Source of the DNA: Candidatus Woesearchaeota archaeon
GTDB lineage: Archaea > Nanobdellota > Nanobdellia > Woesearchaeales > ARS49
DNA: 64,000 nt
Assembly: GCA_038868995.1 (NCBI GenBank)
Contig: JAWCRZ010000001.1
Coordinates: 34,269-98,268, forward strand
Direction: 5' to 3'
Shown here: positions 1-5,151 of the stretch, in pieces
How the letters are laid out: each line of letters starts with the position of its first letter
Position numbering within the stretch: position 1 is the first letter of the stretch
Position numbers and translations under genes: made by a program
The notes under the pieces: model-generated
Database searches by the model: none
Seen by the model: only the letters and a program-made list of their open reading frames with translations
Told to the model about the DNA's origin: nothing

Positions 1-2
1 AA

Positions 3-44
3 ACAGTGCGGGAGATTGTTGAATGGTTTCAGAAATACCTGTAG
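3..44 (+). CDS. C-terminal end of a gene entering from the left (TVREIVEWFQKYL*)
   Basis: Open frame from base 3 to TAG at 42-44; too short to identify. Confidence 0.3.
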   Translation, partial: TVREIVEWFQKYL

Positions 45-190
45 GCAGGATAAATATTGTTGTTAAACCATCACAAAGAAAAACGAGCTTCTTGGTTTTG
101 TTGCCGGATTGTCATCAAAACAGAAAATCTTGTACATCTTGTAATTCTTCCAATTTTTAAACCGATGCAAATATTAAGCGCCAAAATCTT

Positions 191-445
191 GTGTTGTGTA
201 TGTCTTACGTGCATTTGTTTATCGTAAAGGATGACTGTGTTTATCTTGCCAGCGTTCATTACAGGACTGCGATGAAACTTTTGGAAAAAGGCGTTAACAA
301 TATATTACCGTTGTTGAAATCGCGTTTTTTGGATGCTGGTTACCTGGTGTTGGATATTAACCGCCAGATTGTTGTGAATGGGCAGTCCGCATTTCATCTA
401 AGCAAAGTGCTTGGAAAAAAAGACGTATACGTGGTCGAGACATAA
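191..445 (+). CDS. Hypothetical small protein
   Basis: 84-aa ORF with GTG start and protein-like composition; no recognisable motif; start uncertain. Confidence 0.4.
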   Translation: MLCMSYVHLFIVKDDCVYLASVHYRTAMKLLEKGVNNILPLLKSRFLDAGYLVLDINRQIVVNGQSAFHLSKVLGKKDVYVVET

Positions 446-446
446 G

Positions 447-454
447 TTTTTAAG
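447..454 (+). promoter_or_regulatory. TATA box for Tyr-rich gene 1
   Basis: TTTTTAAG ending 27 nt before the ATG at 482. Confidence 0.55.
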
Positions 455-481
455 CTTCTCTACGTTCACAAAGCAAAAAAT

Positions 482-871
482 ATGGTGCAGAAGACTGTTA
501 TTGCGCTTGTCGTCATTGTATTGCTTGTCGCTGTAATTGTAAGCGCGGCCTACCGCTATACTTATTGGCCGCCGAGATATCGTTATTATTACACTTATTA
601 TCCTGTACAGTATTATCCTTATCCTGTATCATATCCTTTGTATATGTACCCGTATTATTATTCGCCTTTGTCGGCTGAGTATATGTTCCGGTATGGAACT
701 CCTGAAGTTCAGGTGTCTTATCCTGCAGCAGTTCAGGAAACTGCTCCCCGTGGCTCTGTTGGCCAGTTGTGCGGCCTTGTTGACAGCAAGGCGTACGGCT
801 GCTATTATGGGATGGTTTGTGACTATACTGCCACTGGAAAGCCAGGCATCGGCGTCTGCACCAGCCAATAG
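482..871 (+). CDS. Secreted or membrane-anchored Tyr/Pro-rich protein with C-terminal 4-Cys module, paralog 1
   Basis: MVQKTVIALVVIVLLVAV hydrophobic N-terminus; 25 Tyr in 129 aa; C-terminal GQLC-x9-C-x5-C-x12-C. Confidence 0.85.
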   Translation: MVQKTVIALVVIVLLVAVIVSAAYRYTYWPPRYRYYYTYYPVQYYPYPVSYPLYMYPYYYSPLSAEYMFRYGTPEVQVSYPAAVQETAPRGSVGQLCGLVDSKAYGCYYGMVCDYTATGKPGIGVCTSQ

Positions 872-872
872 A

Positions 873-880
873 TTTTTAAA
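873..880 (+). promoter_or_regulatory. TATA box for Tyr-rich gene 2
   Basis: TTTTTAAA ending 26 nt before the ATG at 907. Confidence 0.55.
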
Positions 881-906
881 GGCGTAAATGCTTTTTCTGG
901 CAAAAG

Positions 907-1281
907 ATGGTGAAGAAAACAGTTATTGCAATTGTGCTTGTTGTCCTTCTTGTCGCGGTATTTGCCGCTGCTTCTTACAGATACGGCGGCTATCTTCCAT
1001 ATCAGTCGTATTACGGGCCTAAAATGGCATATCCCAGATACGTTTCGTATCCGGGCTTTCCGTATCCAACTTATCAGCCGCCTTCGTATGTTTATCCGTA
1101 TTATGTTCCTGTTGGCGCATATCCTGAGCGGTATCCGGTGCAGACGCCGTGGACGTTTACCGGCGTTGTCCCGCCTCCAAAGGAAGGCCAGTTGTGCTCG
1201 GACGGATGCGCCCCTGGACTGGTGTGTGATTATTCACGTACTTCACAGCCAAATGTTGGCGTGTGTGCGCGCTGGGCATAA
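907..1281 (+). CDS. Secreted Tyr/Pro-rich protein with 4-Cys module, paralog 2
   Basis: MVKKTVIAIVLVVLLVAV N-terminus; YP-rich middle; GQLC-x3-C-x5-C-x12-C. Confidence 0.85.
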   Translation: MVKKTVIAIVLVVLLVAVFAAASYRYGGYLPYQSYYGPKMAYPRYVSYPGFPYPTYQPPSYVYPYYVPVGAYPERYPVQTPWTFTGVVPPPKEGQLCSDGCAPGLVCDYSRTSQPNVGVCARWA

Positions 1282-1282
1282 G

Positions 1283-1290
1283 TTTTTATA
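1283..1290 (+). promoter_or_regulatory. TATA box for Tyr-rich gene 3
   Basis: TTTTTATA ending 26 nt before the ATG at 1317. Confidence 0.55.
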
Positions 1291-1316
1291 GAAAAAAGAG
1301 TCATGTGTGAAAAAAG

Positions 1317-1829
1317 ATGGTGAAGAAAACAATTATTGCAATTGTGCTCGTTGTCCTTCTTGTCGCTGTTTTTGCCGGGGCGGCAAGCAAATGGGGCTAT
1401 ACTCGTTATGGCGCAATTTATTACGCAGGTGTGCCTTCTTACAATTATTATCCTGTTTATCATGATTACCCTATTGAGAGTATGTATTTTCCGTATGGCT
1501 TTGGTGTTTATTATCCTTATATGTATGATGGGTATTTCCCCGCTTCTTATACTCCTCAGATGAATTACCCGCTTGGCCCTTCATCGCAGGAGAGGCGTTT
1601 TGTGTACACGCCTGCAGAATATCCTACAATGATGGCGCCGATGAGTGCAGAAGGCCAGCTGTGCGGCGTGATTAACAGCAGGCAGTACAGTTGTCGGTAT
1701 GGGTTGACGTGTGATTATACAAAGACAGGCACGACTGGTGTTGGCATATGTGCAAAGCTGCCAATGGATTCCACGACATATCCATACCAGGTTTACGGAA
1801 TTTCCCAGAATTTCCCGTATTACGGCTGA
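1317..1829 (+). CDS. Secreted Tyr/Pro-rich protein with 4-Cys module, paralog 3
   Basis: MVKKTIIAIVLVVLLVAV N-terminus; Tyr-rich; GQLC-x9-C-x5-C-x12-C plus a Tyr-rich tail. Confidence 0.85.
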   Translation: MVKKTIIAIVLVVLLVAVFAGAASKWGYTRYGAIYYAGVPSYNYYPVYHDYPIESMYFPYGFGVYYPYMYDGYFPASYTPQMNYPLGPSSQERRFVYTPAEYPTMMAPMSAEGQLCGVINSRQYSCRYGLTCDYTKTGTTGVGICAKLPMDSTTYPYQVYGISQNFPYYG

Positions 1830-2449
1830 ATGTTGCTGAGTTTTGGCATTTCTTCTAAAAGTTTGTTTTCAAGTTCGCTCTTGCAGCGTGCATGGAAGGG
1901 TTCTCCTGCCCTAACCCACACATGCGTTTTTCCGTGTAACTCTTTGATTTCAAGTCCTACGGAAACATTTGGAATCGGCTTTTCAAATGCACCATTTTCC
2001 TGCGCACACAGTATTTGTTCAGCCACCCAAAGTTTGAATGGGGTTCTTATTTTTCCTGGAGAGCGGGTACCTTCCGGAAAGCTGACAACCGGTTCTTTTA
2101 GTTTTAGGCGCGACAAGGCATAATCAGCCGCTCGTTTGTTTTGCTGGTTTGCTTCCATTCGTGAATAGCCGGTTTTTGCAAAGTCTTTTGACCTCACCAC
2201 CATTATGCCTCCAATTGGCCTGAGGGCATAATTTAGGATTCCAAAATCGCGCATTATGTAAGTTGCAAGTTTTTTCTGGCTGTAAAGCATGACTCCTATG
2301 AAAAATTGGTCCATATTGCCTATGTGCTTTGAATAAATCAAGCATGGACCTTCGGGGAATTTGCCTTTGTAATGAACAGAGTATTTCTTTTCGAGGTATG
2401 CTTTCACAAGGGGTTGCGCAAGGTGGCATAGAAAGTCAAGGCGTGTCAT
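1820..2449 (-). CDS. PlsC/LPLAT-family (lyso)phospholipid acyltransferase
   Basis: HxxxxD motif (KHIGNMD) and FPEGTRS motif; start reassigned to ATG at 2449 (MTRLDFL), overlapping the nucS stop. Confidence 0.8.
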   Translation of the reverse strand: MTRLDFLCHLAQPLVKAYLEKKYSVHYKGKFPEGPCLIYSKHIGNMDQFFIGVMLYSQKKLATYIMRDFGILNYALRPIGGIMVVRSKDFAKTGYSRMEANQQNKRAADYALSRLKLKEPVVSFPEGTRSPGKIRTPFKLWVAEQILCAQENGAFEKPIPNVSVGLEIKELHGKTHVWVRAGEPFHARCKSELENKLLEEMPKLSNIQP

Positions 2450-3182
2450 AATAATCAAGTCGTGACTGTTTTTTTTCGTATTCTTCAAGATATTTTGGTG
2501 GCTTTATCGAAACAAACTCAAACCCCCAGTCATTGAGCATGCGTGCTGCATTCTCTGTTATTTTTGGCGCCGCAAGAATTCCTCTCACTCGCGTTATTCC
2601 TTTGCTCACCATTATTTTTTCTACATACCTGCGTAATTGAGTGACTGCCGACAGCTCGGCGCAGTACCTTTTGCACTCAACAACCGTCAAAACTCCATTT
2701 TTGTCAACACCGAGAACGTCTATGAAGCCATATTTGGTTTGCTCTTCCTGCGATACCGGCTTGAAGCCGTCTTCTATTAGTTCCGGGTTTTTGTAAATCA
2801 TGTCGCTCATGTCATCTTCTGTTCCCGCAATGCTGATAACCTGCCCGTCTTCCAGTTTATGGCTGTTGAAGAAGTGTATTTTGTCTATTGTGATGTCTAT
2901 GCGTTCTTTCTGTACGAGGTTTTGGCTTTTCAGAAGAAGTGTATCGTTTTCAACTTTTATTGTATGCGTTGTGCCGGGCTTCATGTAGTTGATCGGCGCG
3001 TTTCCAGTTGGCTGGTGAACGAGCAGTGCCCCGTCTGATTTTATAATTATTACCCTGTCTCCCCTGCCAAGATAGCTTTCTGCTCTTCCCGAATAGCGTA
3101 TTGTACAGCTGCATGAGAACACAATTGTTTCATTCCGCGATAGCGCATCGTTGAGCAATGTGCAGTAGTCATCCGGATTCAT
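2436..3182 (-). CDS. nucS: Endonuclease NucS/EndoMS (mismatch-specific)
   Basis: YSGRAES, IIIKSDGALLVH, E...YGFIDVLGVD...VVECKR and QLRRYV motifs typical of NucS. Confidence 0.93.
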   Translation of the reverse strand: MNPDDYCTLLNDALSRNETIVFSCSCTIRYSGRAESYLGRGDRVIIIKSDGALLVHQPTGNAPINYMKPGTTHTIKVENDTLLLKSQNLVQKERIDITIDKIHFFNSHKLEDGQVISIAGTEDDMSDMIYKNPELIEDGFKPVSQEEQTKYGFIDVLGVDKNGVLTVVECKRYCAELSAVTQLRRYVEKIMVSKGITRVRGILAAPKITENAARMLNDWGFEFVSIKPPKYLEEYEKKQSRLDYYDTP

Positions 3183-3211
3183 AAAAAGGAAAACGCAAAG
3201 CAGGTATATAA

Positions 3212-4255
3212 TTACATTTTGGCGTATTTTTCAATCTCGTCCTGTACAACTTCCAGTTTGACTTTTGCGTCTTTGAATATTTCGCGGGTGTATGCTGCTC
3301 CGTGGTATTTTTTCATGCAAACTACTCTGGTTATGCCTGAGTTTACAATCATTTGCGCGCATTTGTAGCATGGCTCCATCTTGCAGTATAGTGTTGAGCC
3401 ATTGACTGATATGCCGTGGCGTGCAGCTTGTGCAATAGCATTTGTTTCTGCGTGCGTTGTTCTGATGCAGTGCTGGGATGTCGTTCCGTCAGGGTTTTGA
3501 ACTGTATGCATGAGATGTCCTGCTTCATCGCAGTGTGCCAGCCCGACAGGCGCACCAACATAGCCGGTTGATATAATGCGCTTGTCTTTGACTATAACGC
3601 ATCCACTTTTTCCCCTGTCGCAGGTCGCTCGCTTGCCTACTTCTAATGCTAAATTTAGGAAATATTTGTCCCAGCTCGGGCGCACATCTCCTAGTTTGCG
3701 TTTCCATTCTTTCAGTATTTTTAGTATTTTCTTCTTCAGTTCGTCACGTGTACCATCATTTGTTACAATAATGTCTGCCATTGACATTACGGCTGATACT
3801 TGCTGCTTTGTCGGATCAGTGCTGGTTGATTCCTGTTCTTCCCATTTTTTGAATTCTTCAAAGGTTTGAAGGTCATCATTTCGTTTTTCTGTTGCTTGTC
3901 TTTGCTGCATCCTGTTCCATCTGGTTTTTTGGGATGCAGTTACGTTTATAAGCGCAAAATTTGGTTTTGTCCTGAGTATTTCTACCTCAACAGGGTTTCT
4001 GACGCTTGTTACAACGTAGCTTTTGTCCCATTCCATTCTCTGTAAAGCCCATCTTGCCAGAATTCCACTGCCGTGTTTTTTCCTTAGTTCATTGCCAAGG
4101 TTGATGAGATTTTCCCTTGTGTCCTTTATTTTGCGCTTTTTTGCCTCTTCGCGAATAAAATCAGAAAGTGAAATTTGGTGGAATCGTTCTTCCTTGAGAA
4201 TTTCTGCGACTGTGTCTTTTCCGGCGGCAAGGTGCCCTGTAACTCCCAGTATCAT
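3212..4255 (-). CDS. P-loop nucleotide-kinase-like domain fused to dCMP deaminase
   Basis: N-terminal GVTGHLAAGKDT Walker A; C-terminal RPSWDKYF, HAETNAI and PCYKC zinc-deaminase motifs; start at MILGVTG. Confidence 0.88.
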   Translation of the reverse strand: MILGVTGHLAAGKDTVAEILKEERFHQISLSDFIREEAKKRKIKDTRENLINLGNELRKKHGSGILARWALQRMEWDKSYVVTSVRNPVEVEILRTKPNFALINVTASQKTRWNRMQQRQATEKRNDDLQTFEEFKKWEEQESTSTDPTKQQVSAVMSMADIIVTNDGTRDELKKKILKILKEWKRKLGDVRPSWDKYFLNLALEVGKRATCDRGKSGCVIVKDKRIISTGYVGAPVGLAHCDEAGHLMHTVQNPDGTTSQHCIRTTHAETNAIAQAARHGISVNGSTLYCKMEPCYKCAQMIVNSGITRVVCMKKYHGAAYTREIFKDAKVKLEVVQDEIEKYAKM

Positions 4256-4402
4256 GGCACGGATATTCCTCAAGACCTATTTAAAATTTCATGAACTCCA
4301 GTAGCATGATTGCAGTTATCACATTGCAAACAGTAGATGGCGTGCCATAAATGAATTTAAATCAGCTGCCTATTGCATCTGCATCCGTGGAGAAAAGAGG
4401 TG

Positions 4403-4420
4403 ATTCCCCTTCGGGGGAAT
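4403..4420 (+). other. Perfect 7-bp hairpin with c(UUCG)g tetraloop
   Basis: ATTCCCC-TTCG-GGGGAAT. Confidence 0.7.
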
Positions 4421-4423
4421 TAA

Positions 4424-4525
4424 TCAGCTGATTGCTTCTTCTGCGTTCTGGTCATCTGCATCGCGGAAGAAAGAGCCAAGGTCTTTGTTTTTTAATTTCT
4501 CTTTGTAATTTACTGCTACTGCCAA
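4424..4525 (-). CDS. Small 33-aa ORF MAVAVNYKEKLKNKDLGSFFRDADDQNAEEAIS (not in ORF track)
   Basis: TTG start 6 nt after GAGGTG RBS; TTTAAATA box upstream at 4586-4593 (minus strand). Confidence 0.55.
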   Translation of the reverse strand: MAVAVNYKEKLKNKDLGSFFRDADDQNAEEAIS

Positions 4526-4656
4526 TCATACCACCTCTTTTGGTAAAAAACTTGTCGTCGTCCAAAAAAAATTTAGGCAGATTCATATTTAAAGAGTGTT
4601 GTAAATGAAAATATATTCCGCACTATACAGAGTGACAACAGTGTACTGAAAAGAAA

Positions 4657-5151
4657 TCACGCAAATTCTGCCAAGCTTTGCATATTGTGCTTGAAGATGT
4701 TTCCAGTTTTTGCGTTGATTTTGATGTTTATCGTCTTCAAGCTCTGCGTAAAATAAGTTATGTTGAAAATAGCGTGTCCTTCAGCGTGCTGGATGATGAA
4801 AAACTCTTTCAGTGGTTTTTCTCCTCGATAATTTTGTTCAAGGCACTGTCTTGCCGTTGATAGCGCACTTTCAATTGAAAGCGTTACGTCTTCCGGCTTC
4901 AATGGATGAATGTCTGCTTCCGACTTGAGCACTTCCTGTTCTTCTGTGTGCTTTATTTCTTTGTCTGAAACAACAAAAGTTACCATGCGCTCTTTATCTG
5001 GATTGTAAAAGCCAATCTGCCAAGTTCCTTTGTTGGCTTCGTCCAGCATTACAAACGCATGCGCAAGAAAATAGGCAGTATTTTCCTTGCGCCATTCCTT
5101 GAAAACAGAATTTCTGGTCAGTTTGGCAAAAGTTTCATGCAGGTCCATCAT
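4657..5151 (-). CDS. Hypothetical protein, possibly PepSY-like beta fold
   Basis: Real start probably MMDLHETF at 5151 (ATGA overlap with the MFS stop); the upstream part of the track ORF overlaps the MFS gene. Confidence 0.7.
   Translation of the reverse strand: MMDLHETFAKLTRNSVFKEWRKENTAYFLAHAFVMLDEANKGTWQIGFYNPDKERMVTFVVSDKEIKHTEEQEVLKSEADIHPLKPEDVTLSIESALSTARQCLEQNYRGEKPLKEFFIIQHAEGHAIFNITYFTQSLKTINIKINAKTGNIFKHNMQSLAEFA

Follow-up and report, generated by a model that had tools for sequence, protein, structure and literature searches.

Three tandem genes lie near the start of a 64,000-nucleotide stretch of a Candidatus Woesearchaeota genome (contig JAWCRZ010000001.1, positions 34,269 to 98,268; hereafter, the window). 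They encode extremely tyrosine-rich proteins, each made of a hydrophobic N-terminus, a Tyr/Pro-rich middle and a C-terminal module with four cysteines (the 4-Cys module). With a probability of about one half, we read this family as exported, non-enzymatic surface or matrix proteins in which a sticky spacer would carry a binding knob. Its architecture, export signal, disorder, fold class, distribution and purifying selection are supported by the evidence presented here. The source organism, a DPANN archaeon (Nanoarchaeota), is represented by a 0.94 Mb (940 kb) assembly of 20 contigs that is 98.6% complete.

Three paralogues of one architecture

The three open reading frames (ORFs) stand head to tail on the forward strand, separated by 35-nt spacers: gene 1 at 482-871 (129 aa), gene 2 at 907-1281 (124 aa) and gene 3 at 1317-1829 (170 aa). 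The initial annotation, which had described three tandem paralogues at 482-1829, was exact in its coordinates and ORFs. Pairwise BLASTP comparisons gave E values of 1e-8 to 3e-16, and the modules alone, with the low-complexity filter on, gave 1e-7 to 2e-14. In the alignment, an invariant MV(K/Q)KT is followed by a hydrophobic run, then by a poorly alignable Tyr/Pro/Gly-rich middle. The conserved four-cysteine tail of that annotation was also recovered in all three proteins, as GQLC-x9-C-x5-C-DY-x10-C in genes 1 and 3 and with x3 in the first loop of gene 2. Tyr content is 19.4%, 14.5% and 16.5% in genes 1, 2 and 3, respectively, the first figure agreeing with the earlier estimate of ~19%. The proteome mean is 3.2%, and the three genes hold ranks 1-3 for Tyr among the 1071 ORFs of the genome. 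Across all family members the range is 15-22%.

Within gene 1, the signal or anchor covers aa 1-22/23 (nt 482-550), the Tyr/Pro-rich region predicted to be disordered aa 24-93, and the 4-Cys module aa 94-126 (nt 761-859). The module of gene 2, its first loop shortened to C-SDG-C, lies at aa 94-120 (nt 1186-1266), and that of gene 3 at aa 113-145 (nt 1653-1751). Gene 3 has an extra Tyr/Thr/Pro-rich C-terminal tail ending in YPYYG (aa 146-170, nt 1752-1826).

Each gene is preceded on its own strand by a TATA box that starts 34-35 nt before the ATG. The TATA-like box of gene 1, TTTTTAAG, is at 447-454 and starts 35 nt 5' of the start codon; those of gene 2 (TTTTTAAA, 873-880) and gene 3 (TTTTTATA, 1283-1290) directly follow the stop codons of genes 1 and 2, respectively. 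Genome-wide, TTTAWA is sharply concentrated 28-32 nt before the start codon, so that transcripts in this genome are as a rule leaderless or nearly so, and the boxes of genes 1-3 are in its canonical position. The layout of stop codon, TTTTTAAA, ~22 nt, GAAAAAG and ATG is shared with the orthologues of other species, whose coding sequences differ at synonymous positions. The three genes thus appear to be transcribed separately, each from its own TATA box. Together with presence at the syntenic site in 14/14 congeners and pN/pS (nonsynonymous to synonymous) ratios below 1, in the range 0.3-0.5, these boxes indicate that the three ORFs are real genes. No RNA family was matched in an Rfam search of positions 1-5000 of the window.

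The N-terminal signal was analysed in 58 family members by residue pattern (n-region charge, uncharged run, and residues at -1 and -3). The n-region has a net charge of +2 in 50/58 members, the uncharged run is 14-22 aa long (mean 18.7), and Ala at -1 with G, V, A, S, L, T or I at -3 is found in all 58. This pattern argues for a Sec-type signal or anchor, in line with the earlier description of the proteins as secreted or anchored. Divergent members have unrelated yet canonical signals, for example MKKALFIILILVTAMFAAAVYA before AD (...AVYA before AD) and ...LTASA before QY. The AlphaFold2 model of the gene 1 protein has a continuous helix at residues 2-27, with predicted local distance difference test (pLDDT) values of 85-94. 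Both cleavage after Ala22/23 and retention as an anchor may be compatible with such an N-terminus.

Retention would suit a different, unlikely reading that still has a real claim to attention, namely an uncleaved type II membrane protein. Its N-terminal helix would be an anchor or partner-binding helix, and the Tyr-rich region would sit at the membrane/S-layer interface as a structural part of the cell's own envelope, with no host contact. The hydrophobic run, at ~19 residues, could cross a membrane, the model has an unbroken helix here, and Tyr and Trp prefer membrane interfaces. The N-terminus is moreover constrained like the module, with MVKKT almost invariant across three old subtypes. Part of this constraint is explained by shallow divergence, since the signals of another exported protein in the genus are also, by eye, well conserved. 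The Ala at -1 and small residue at -3 kept in 58/58 members speak against a permanent anchor, and the replacement of the helix by unrelated canonical signal peptides in divergent members fits a cleaved signal.

The middle, 39-118 aa long across the family, is composed of 26.9% Tyr, 14.3% Pro, 10% Ser, 7% Gly and 4.6% Arg, with almost no Asp, Glu or Lys. YP dipeptides are enriched 1.55-fold, and YPYY, YRYG and PYYY are the commonest tetrapeptides; the spacing of aromatic residues did not differ from that of shuffled sequences (median z -0.6). Residues 31-86 of the gene 1 model have pLDDT values below 50, and the middle is predicted to be intrinsically disordered. The initial annotation had called it hypervariable. 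It is indeed Tyr/Pro-rich and poorly alignable, but it contains conserved islands: [KR]WGYTRYGA just behind the signal, SPLSSEYMYRYG-P, and P-R-G/S ahead of the module. N-glycosylation sequons occur in 6/55 members and in none of the three window proteins. One metagenomic protein (P0060, 167 aa) has the usual signal and a Tyr-rich region including an S-RYIYRY-AP motif, with a ~60-aa unrelated C-terminal segment containing 2 Cys in place of the 4-Cys module; this may be either a domain swap or an assembly frameshift.

Three subtypes can be recognised from these islands and from the C-terminus. Subtype A (gene 2) has ...SYRYGGYLP... and a short tail, subtype B (gene 1) has ...RLYAGYSPYRYYYTYYPV... 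and a short tail, and subtype C (gene 3) has ...KWGYTRYGA... and a ~25-aa tail, TTYPYQVG-PSTTYPYYY. Subtype C is present in every species of the genus and A plus C in two congeners; the order in this genome is B-A-C. The window paralogues each stand for one of these older subtypes and are not recent copies of one another.

Over their first 66 nt, genes 2 and 3 (907-972 versus 1317-1382) are 89% identical at the DNA level, while the proteins are ~41% identical overall; genes 1/2 and 1/3 share 70-73% DNA identity over the same 66 nt. The corresponding paralogues of another species show many synonymous differences. This pattern suggests local gene conversion of the signal-coding 5' end between genes 2 and 3 in this genome.

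The 4-Cys module and its relatives

Seven residues do not vary among 36 homologues: four Cys, two Gly and an Asp (C11, C21, G24, C27, D28, G38 and C40 of the 43-column module alignment). Nearly all members have exactly 4 Cys, and three have a fifth inside the N-terminal hydrophobic run. AlphaFold2 gave pLDDT values of ~89 (87-92) for the module and 89.4 for a domain-only model with four short strands, and the module is confidently predicted to fold into a four-strand mini-domain. A Foldseek search of the PDB with the 43-aa module gave only weak matches, with query-normalised template-modelling (TM) scores of 0.57-0.68, probabilities up to 0.95 and E values of 0.16-3. They included colipase (1lpa), SIBD-1 (3zxc), the N-domains of IGFBP4, IGFBP7 (8ivd) and mini-IGFBP-5 (1h59), 2dsq, MIT1, asteropsins and Dickkopf; nothing significant was found in BFVD. 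For 3zxc, 8ivd, 1h59 and 2dsq the TM scores were 0.56-0.68, the probabilities 0.2-0.95 and the E values 0.2-3. The fold neighbours (SIBD-1, IGFBP N-domains, colipase, MIT1 and asteropsins) are without exception secreted binding proteins rich in disulfides.

The initial annotation had likened the cysteine motif to that of insulin-like growth factor-binding proteins (IGFBPs). As a fold class, 'IGFBP-like' seems a fair description. The IGFBP N-domain and SIBD-1 of the spider Cupiennius salei, among the best Foldseek neighbours, share with the module the pattern G-x-x-C-G...C-x2-G-L-x-C and, by prediction, a small disulfide-stapled beta-hairpin sub-domain. The fold likeness is weak (TM 0.57-0.68), and two fungal module proteins, described below, scored 26.4 and 23 bits against Pfam IGFBP, just under the cut-off of 28. 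Family membership, in contrast, is rejected. The archaeal module has 4 Cys and lacks the 12-Cys N-domain of IGFBPs, GCGCC is absent from every member, and none of the 36 archaeal members matched PF00219 even at E <= 10. We know of no IGF-like ligand in archaea.

With colipase (the top domain-only match), Dickkopf, MIT1-prokineticin and the knottins, the module shares its size, a predicted all-beta double hairpin and a probable secreted nature (E 0.16-7). However, colipase-type folds have 6-10 Cys and knottins a three-disulfide knot, whereas the archaeal module can form two disulfides at most. A knottin or inhibitor cystine knot, which requires six Cys, was rejected for a module with four. The fungal-type CBM1, considered for its similar 4-Cys spacing, was rejected as well: no CBM_1 match was obtained in the 36 members, and the fold is absent among 32 PDB matches.

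More distant relatives came from a profile hidden Markov model search of 1.84 billion representative sequences, which retrieved the family and proteins repeating the module 3-6 times. These include hypothetical secreted proteins of Blyttiomyces helicus, Nowakowskiella sp. and Syncephalis plumigaleata. Archaeal modules aligned with the fungal repeats in hhalign at 97.3% (E 2.3e-11) over 37 columns. The fungal proteins (RKO83678/RKO93686, KAJ3119943 and KAI8056143) share the pattern EG-x-x-CG-x6-9-C-x2-GL-x-C-x9-14-G-x-C and all have signal peptides. The same module, again with a signal peptide, is found in a 602-aa dockerin protein of an uncultured organism (P0063/P0067). The fungal and dockerin proteins, all uncharacterised, differ from the archaeal family in carrying the module 3-6 times, in having short linkers or dockerin repeats, and in lacking a Tyr/Pro-rich region. 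What is shared is a short Cys/Gly-rich pattern, which may have arisen by convergence. Its occurrence in signal-peptide-bearing fungal proteins and in the dockerin protein, together with the secreted fold neighbours, supports an extracellular nature of the module.

Two observations concern these relatives themselves. Four of the fungal proteins, from Blyttiomyces, Nowakowskiella and Syncephalis (P0059, P0062, P0064 and P0066), have 4-6 tandem module copies, and the chytrid and zoopagomycete proteins appear to form an unannotated fungal Cys-repeat family. The 602-aa protein (L039:5001-7533) combines three dockerin repeats, three 4-Cys modules and two copies of another Cys-rich unit. Its gene stands between ATP-grasp and seven-transmembrane (7TM)-transglutaminase genes on the upstream side and a cohesin-like gene on the downstream side, with type IV secretion system pilin-like genes nearby. 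By this neighbourhood the source organism would be bacterial, perhaps of the candidate phyla radiation type, and the locus may be a cohesin-dockerin surface scaffold of an uncultured bacterium.

Distribution, selection and neighbouring genes

The family is present at one syntenic site in 14/14 congeneric species representatives, in 2/22 other genera of the same taxonomic family and in 0/24 other families of the order. As for the wider distribution of the Cys module, a profile search of 401 high-quality genomes from 281 genera of the phylum found it in 4 genera only, all of one family, and always in a Tyr-rich ORF of 130-180 aa. Protein databases hold ~55 clusters of 120-195 aa, all unnamed or 'hypothetical'. 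The family thus appears lineage-specific, confined to one Nanoarchaeota (DPANN) family. Neither the paralogues nor the 36 members had a real match in the curated libraries (Pfam, NCBIfam and PHROG). A PDB sequence search with the family profile returned only noise (VirB8, E 0.55), and no description of such a family was found in the literature. The view that this is not a described archaeal family has therefore held.

Copy number changes recurrently. In the genus, the syntenic site runs from TFS and an 80-aa ORF through one to three copies of the family to NucS, with an acyltransferase before NucS in some of the species, and a distant member has an independent tandem pair in a different gene context. 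These changes (1, 2 or 3 copies in the genus, and the separate pair) fit a surface or interaction role.

Selection was estimated from ten subtype-C orthologues in the annotated frame. Synonymous differences are saturated (pS 0.6-0.73), and pN/pS was lowest in the module (0.31) and the signal (0.33) and higher in the tail (0.49) and the middle (0.52). These ratios point to purifying selection. In the middle, no positive selection was seen, at a pN/pS of 0.52 obtained with saturated synonymous sites and a poor alignment in this region. Orthologues are 33-70% identical between species, against 77-92% for NucS; the family therefore evolves fast. A conserved knob joined to a variable spacer (0.31 versus 0.52; 39-118 aa) fits a fixed ligand and a linker selected for its composition.

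The same data bear on the idea of a pre-pro-peptide, in which the Tyr/Pro-rich middle would be a pro-region and the C-terminal Cys knot would be released as an effector (a toxin, antimicrobial, protease inhibitor or signal). In animals, the precursors of knottins and conotoxins have just such conserved signal sequences and a released Cys knot. The structural neighbours here include knottin toxins, asteropsins, MIT1 and the antimicrobial tachystatin. A P-R-(G/S) that hardly varies lies 4-5 residues ahead of the module and may be a processing site, and the genes are short, have strong promoters and occur as tandem duplicates. Yet a conserved knot behind a variable 'pro-region' is the opposite of what arms-race toxins show, and the middle keeps its motifs and its extreme Tyr content in all members, which is unexpected for a disposable pro-peptide. 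The universal subtype C has a further conserved Tyr-rich tail after the knot, and no immunity, transporter or protease gene stands in the conserved neighbourhood. We consider a released effector quite doubtful.

Among the neighbouring genes, the 80-aa cytoplasmic-looking ORF (203-445, forward strand) lies immediately upstream of gene 1. It adjoins the family genes throughout the genus, has no signal peptide and matched nothing in Pfam, NCBIfam or PHROG. A role as obligate partner was rejected: the ORF occurs in 13/47 genera, including ones without the family, and lies 480 kb away in one genome (G018). It appears to be an independent, conserved small protein, a syntenic neighbour outside the system. 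Downstream, an acyltransferase gene (PF01553; 1820-2488, reverse strand) is convergent with gene 3 and overlaps its end by 10 nt. It is missing from the site in several congeners and, where present, is 30-34% identical, versus 77-92% for NucS.

A gene for an archaeal signal peptidase I (TIGR02228, 77.9 bits versus a cut-off of 51.85, with no Pfam match; G000:C1:32623-33303) lies 2-3 genes upstream of the Tyr-rich genes, ~1 kb before the window start. This arrangement is kept in the congener examined (L022:4706-5344) and in one other genus (G025). It was treated as probably housekeeping synteny and not as part of the system. Elsewhere in the genome, a small reverse-strand ORF cut by a contig end (G000:C7:1-225) contains 12% Tyr, 4 Cys and a hydrophobic segment at its N-terminus, and did not match the family profile.

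Proposed role and comparison with known systems

In the reading that we favour, the protein would be exported by a Sec-type signal (n-region charge +2, ~19 uncharged residues, Ala kept at -1), which would either be removed after Ala22/23 or stay in place as an N-in/C-out anchor. The nearly uncharged, disordered segment of 40-120 residues, with its YP, YPYY and RYG motifs, would form a proline-stiffened, extended and sticky spacer outside the cell. Numerous weak contacts, of the aromatic, cation-pi and hydrogen-bond kinds, could tie it to glycans, to protein lattices or to itself. In the 33-residue module, the four Cys would form two disulfides stapling a double beta-hairpin knob, whose single, defined binding partner would sit either on the archaeon's own envelope or on a host cell; subtype C would add its short Tyr/Thr/Pro tail. 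The overall role would be that of an envelope, matrix or adhesion component, not of an enzyme. The extracellular location, disulfides, binding and adhesion are properties that we infer.

Two disulfides would be the likeliest state of the four invariant Cys because of the fold class and the secreted eukaryotic homologues. The archaeon's genome encodes a DsbB-family protein (52.7 bits), which may be a recent gain. Its gene overlaps that of an exported, lipoprotein-like thioredoxin-fold (CPHC) protein (G000:C8:15871-16739), which carries FYGAYWCPHC, a motif similar to VKOR-associated Trx domains; a paralogue with CLHC lies at C5:1366-1746.

Several points weigh against this picture of a disulfide-stapled, adhesive surface protein. 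DsbB was undetectable in 13/14 congeners with the family, so that enzymatic disulfide formation cannot be counted on across the genus, and DsbB is no general requirement. VKOR (PF07884) is absent from the archaeon's genome, in a search whose control worked. The lineages of the family probably live in anoxic sediments, and the four Cys may instead form a metal-binding Cys4 site. The fold matches are without statistical significance (E ~0.1-1 and above). The N-terminus is under as much constraint as the folded module (pN/pS 0.33 versus 0.31), and its hydrophobic run is long for a signal peptide. Outside the genus no conserved functional neighbour points to a pathway, the neighbours in other genera being unrelated. 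Finally, the argument for adhesion is one from composition and architecture throughout, and the same holds for the initial annotation's proposal of surface adhesive or coat proteins, possibly for host attachment.

A bolder version, to which we attach little probability, is a prokaryotic, enzyme-independent Tyr-rich 'glue'. The Tyr/Pro/Arg segment would self-associate or coacervate on the surface of an ultra-small episymbiotic archaeon, and the knob would dock to a ligand of the host envelope. The knob itself would be an extracellular mini-domain common to DPANN archaea, a cohesin-dockerin bacterium and early-diverging fungi, possibly resembling the ancestor of the 'C-x2-GL-x-C' sub-domain of the IGFBP-N and CCN proteins of animals.

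The initial annotation had proposed dityrosine or 3,4-dihydroxyphenylalanine (DOPA) cross-linking, as in a structural coat polymer joined by an oxidase or peroxidase in the manner of chorion, cuticle or mussel adhesives. A Tyr content of 15-22% in all members, and their export, would suit such a polymer. The search for oxidases and peroxidases did not bear the proposal out: no multicopper oxidase (PF07732) or haem peroxidase (PF00141) was found in the 98.6%-complete genome, with working controls and with DyP-type peroxidases not searched. A tyrosinase search of this genome also gave no match, though it had no working positive control. If the habitat is anoxic sediment, as we assume, O2 or H2O2 chemistry is unlikely as well. 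Tyr cross-linking by an oxidant from the host or the environment may occur, but a polymer cross-linked by the cell's own enzymes seems very improbable.

Hardly credible is a type IV pilin-like subunit, a lipoprotein or a precursor of a ribosomally synthesized and post-translationally modified peptide (RiPP), despite the short basic N-terminus and hydrophobic helix that recall pilins and the conserved leader, variable core and tandem copies that recall RiPPs. No [KR]-[GA] precedes the hydrophobic run (MVKK-T or MVQK-T in the window proteins), whereas the pilin-like ORFs of this genome have K/R-G-Q/F/I, of the KRGQ or KKGL type. The signal does not end in a lipobox Cys, the only nearby Cys being those inside the hydrophobic run of three members. 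Neither the conserved nor the divergent neighbourhoods contain a RiPP modification enzyme, peptidase or transporter, and what resembles a leader is a hydrophobic signal for export.

DPANN archaea rely on direct contact with other cells, and the contact molecules are mostly unknown. With its small, strongly promoted genes, its presence throughout the genus and, in this genome, the three most Tyr-rich ORFs, the family offers a tractable candidate surface or contact component for synthesis, folding and binding tests. Naming the 4-Cys module would annotate blank proteins in three domains of life. Should the proteins be only envelope filler, they would be an ordinary lineage-specific secreted family.

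The family and its module are uncurated, and no literature description of them came to light, but the design, a low-complexity aromatic and proline segment with a small Cys-rich binding domain, is familiar. From general knowledge, we compare it with plant extensin-lectin chimeras, in which an extended Tyr/Pro-rich glycoprotein segment adjoins a Cys-rich hevein domain, and with Tyr-rich bioadhesives such as mussel foot proteins. The archaeal proteins differ from these in having no Ser-Pro4 repeats, no evident hydroxylation, glycosylation or oxidase machinery and no sequence relationship. What they have in common is the plan, in which an extended Pro/Tyr-rich segment is combined with a small disulfide-rich binding domain.

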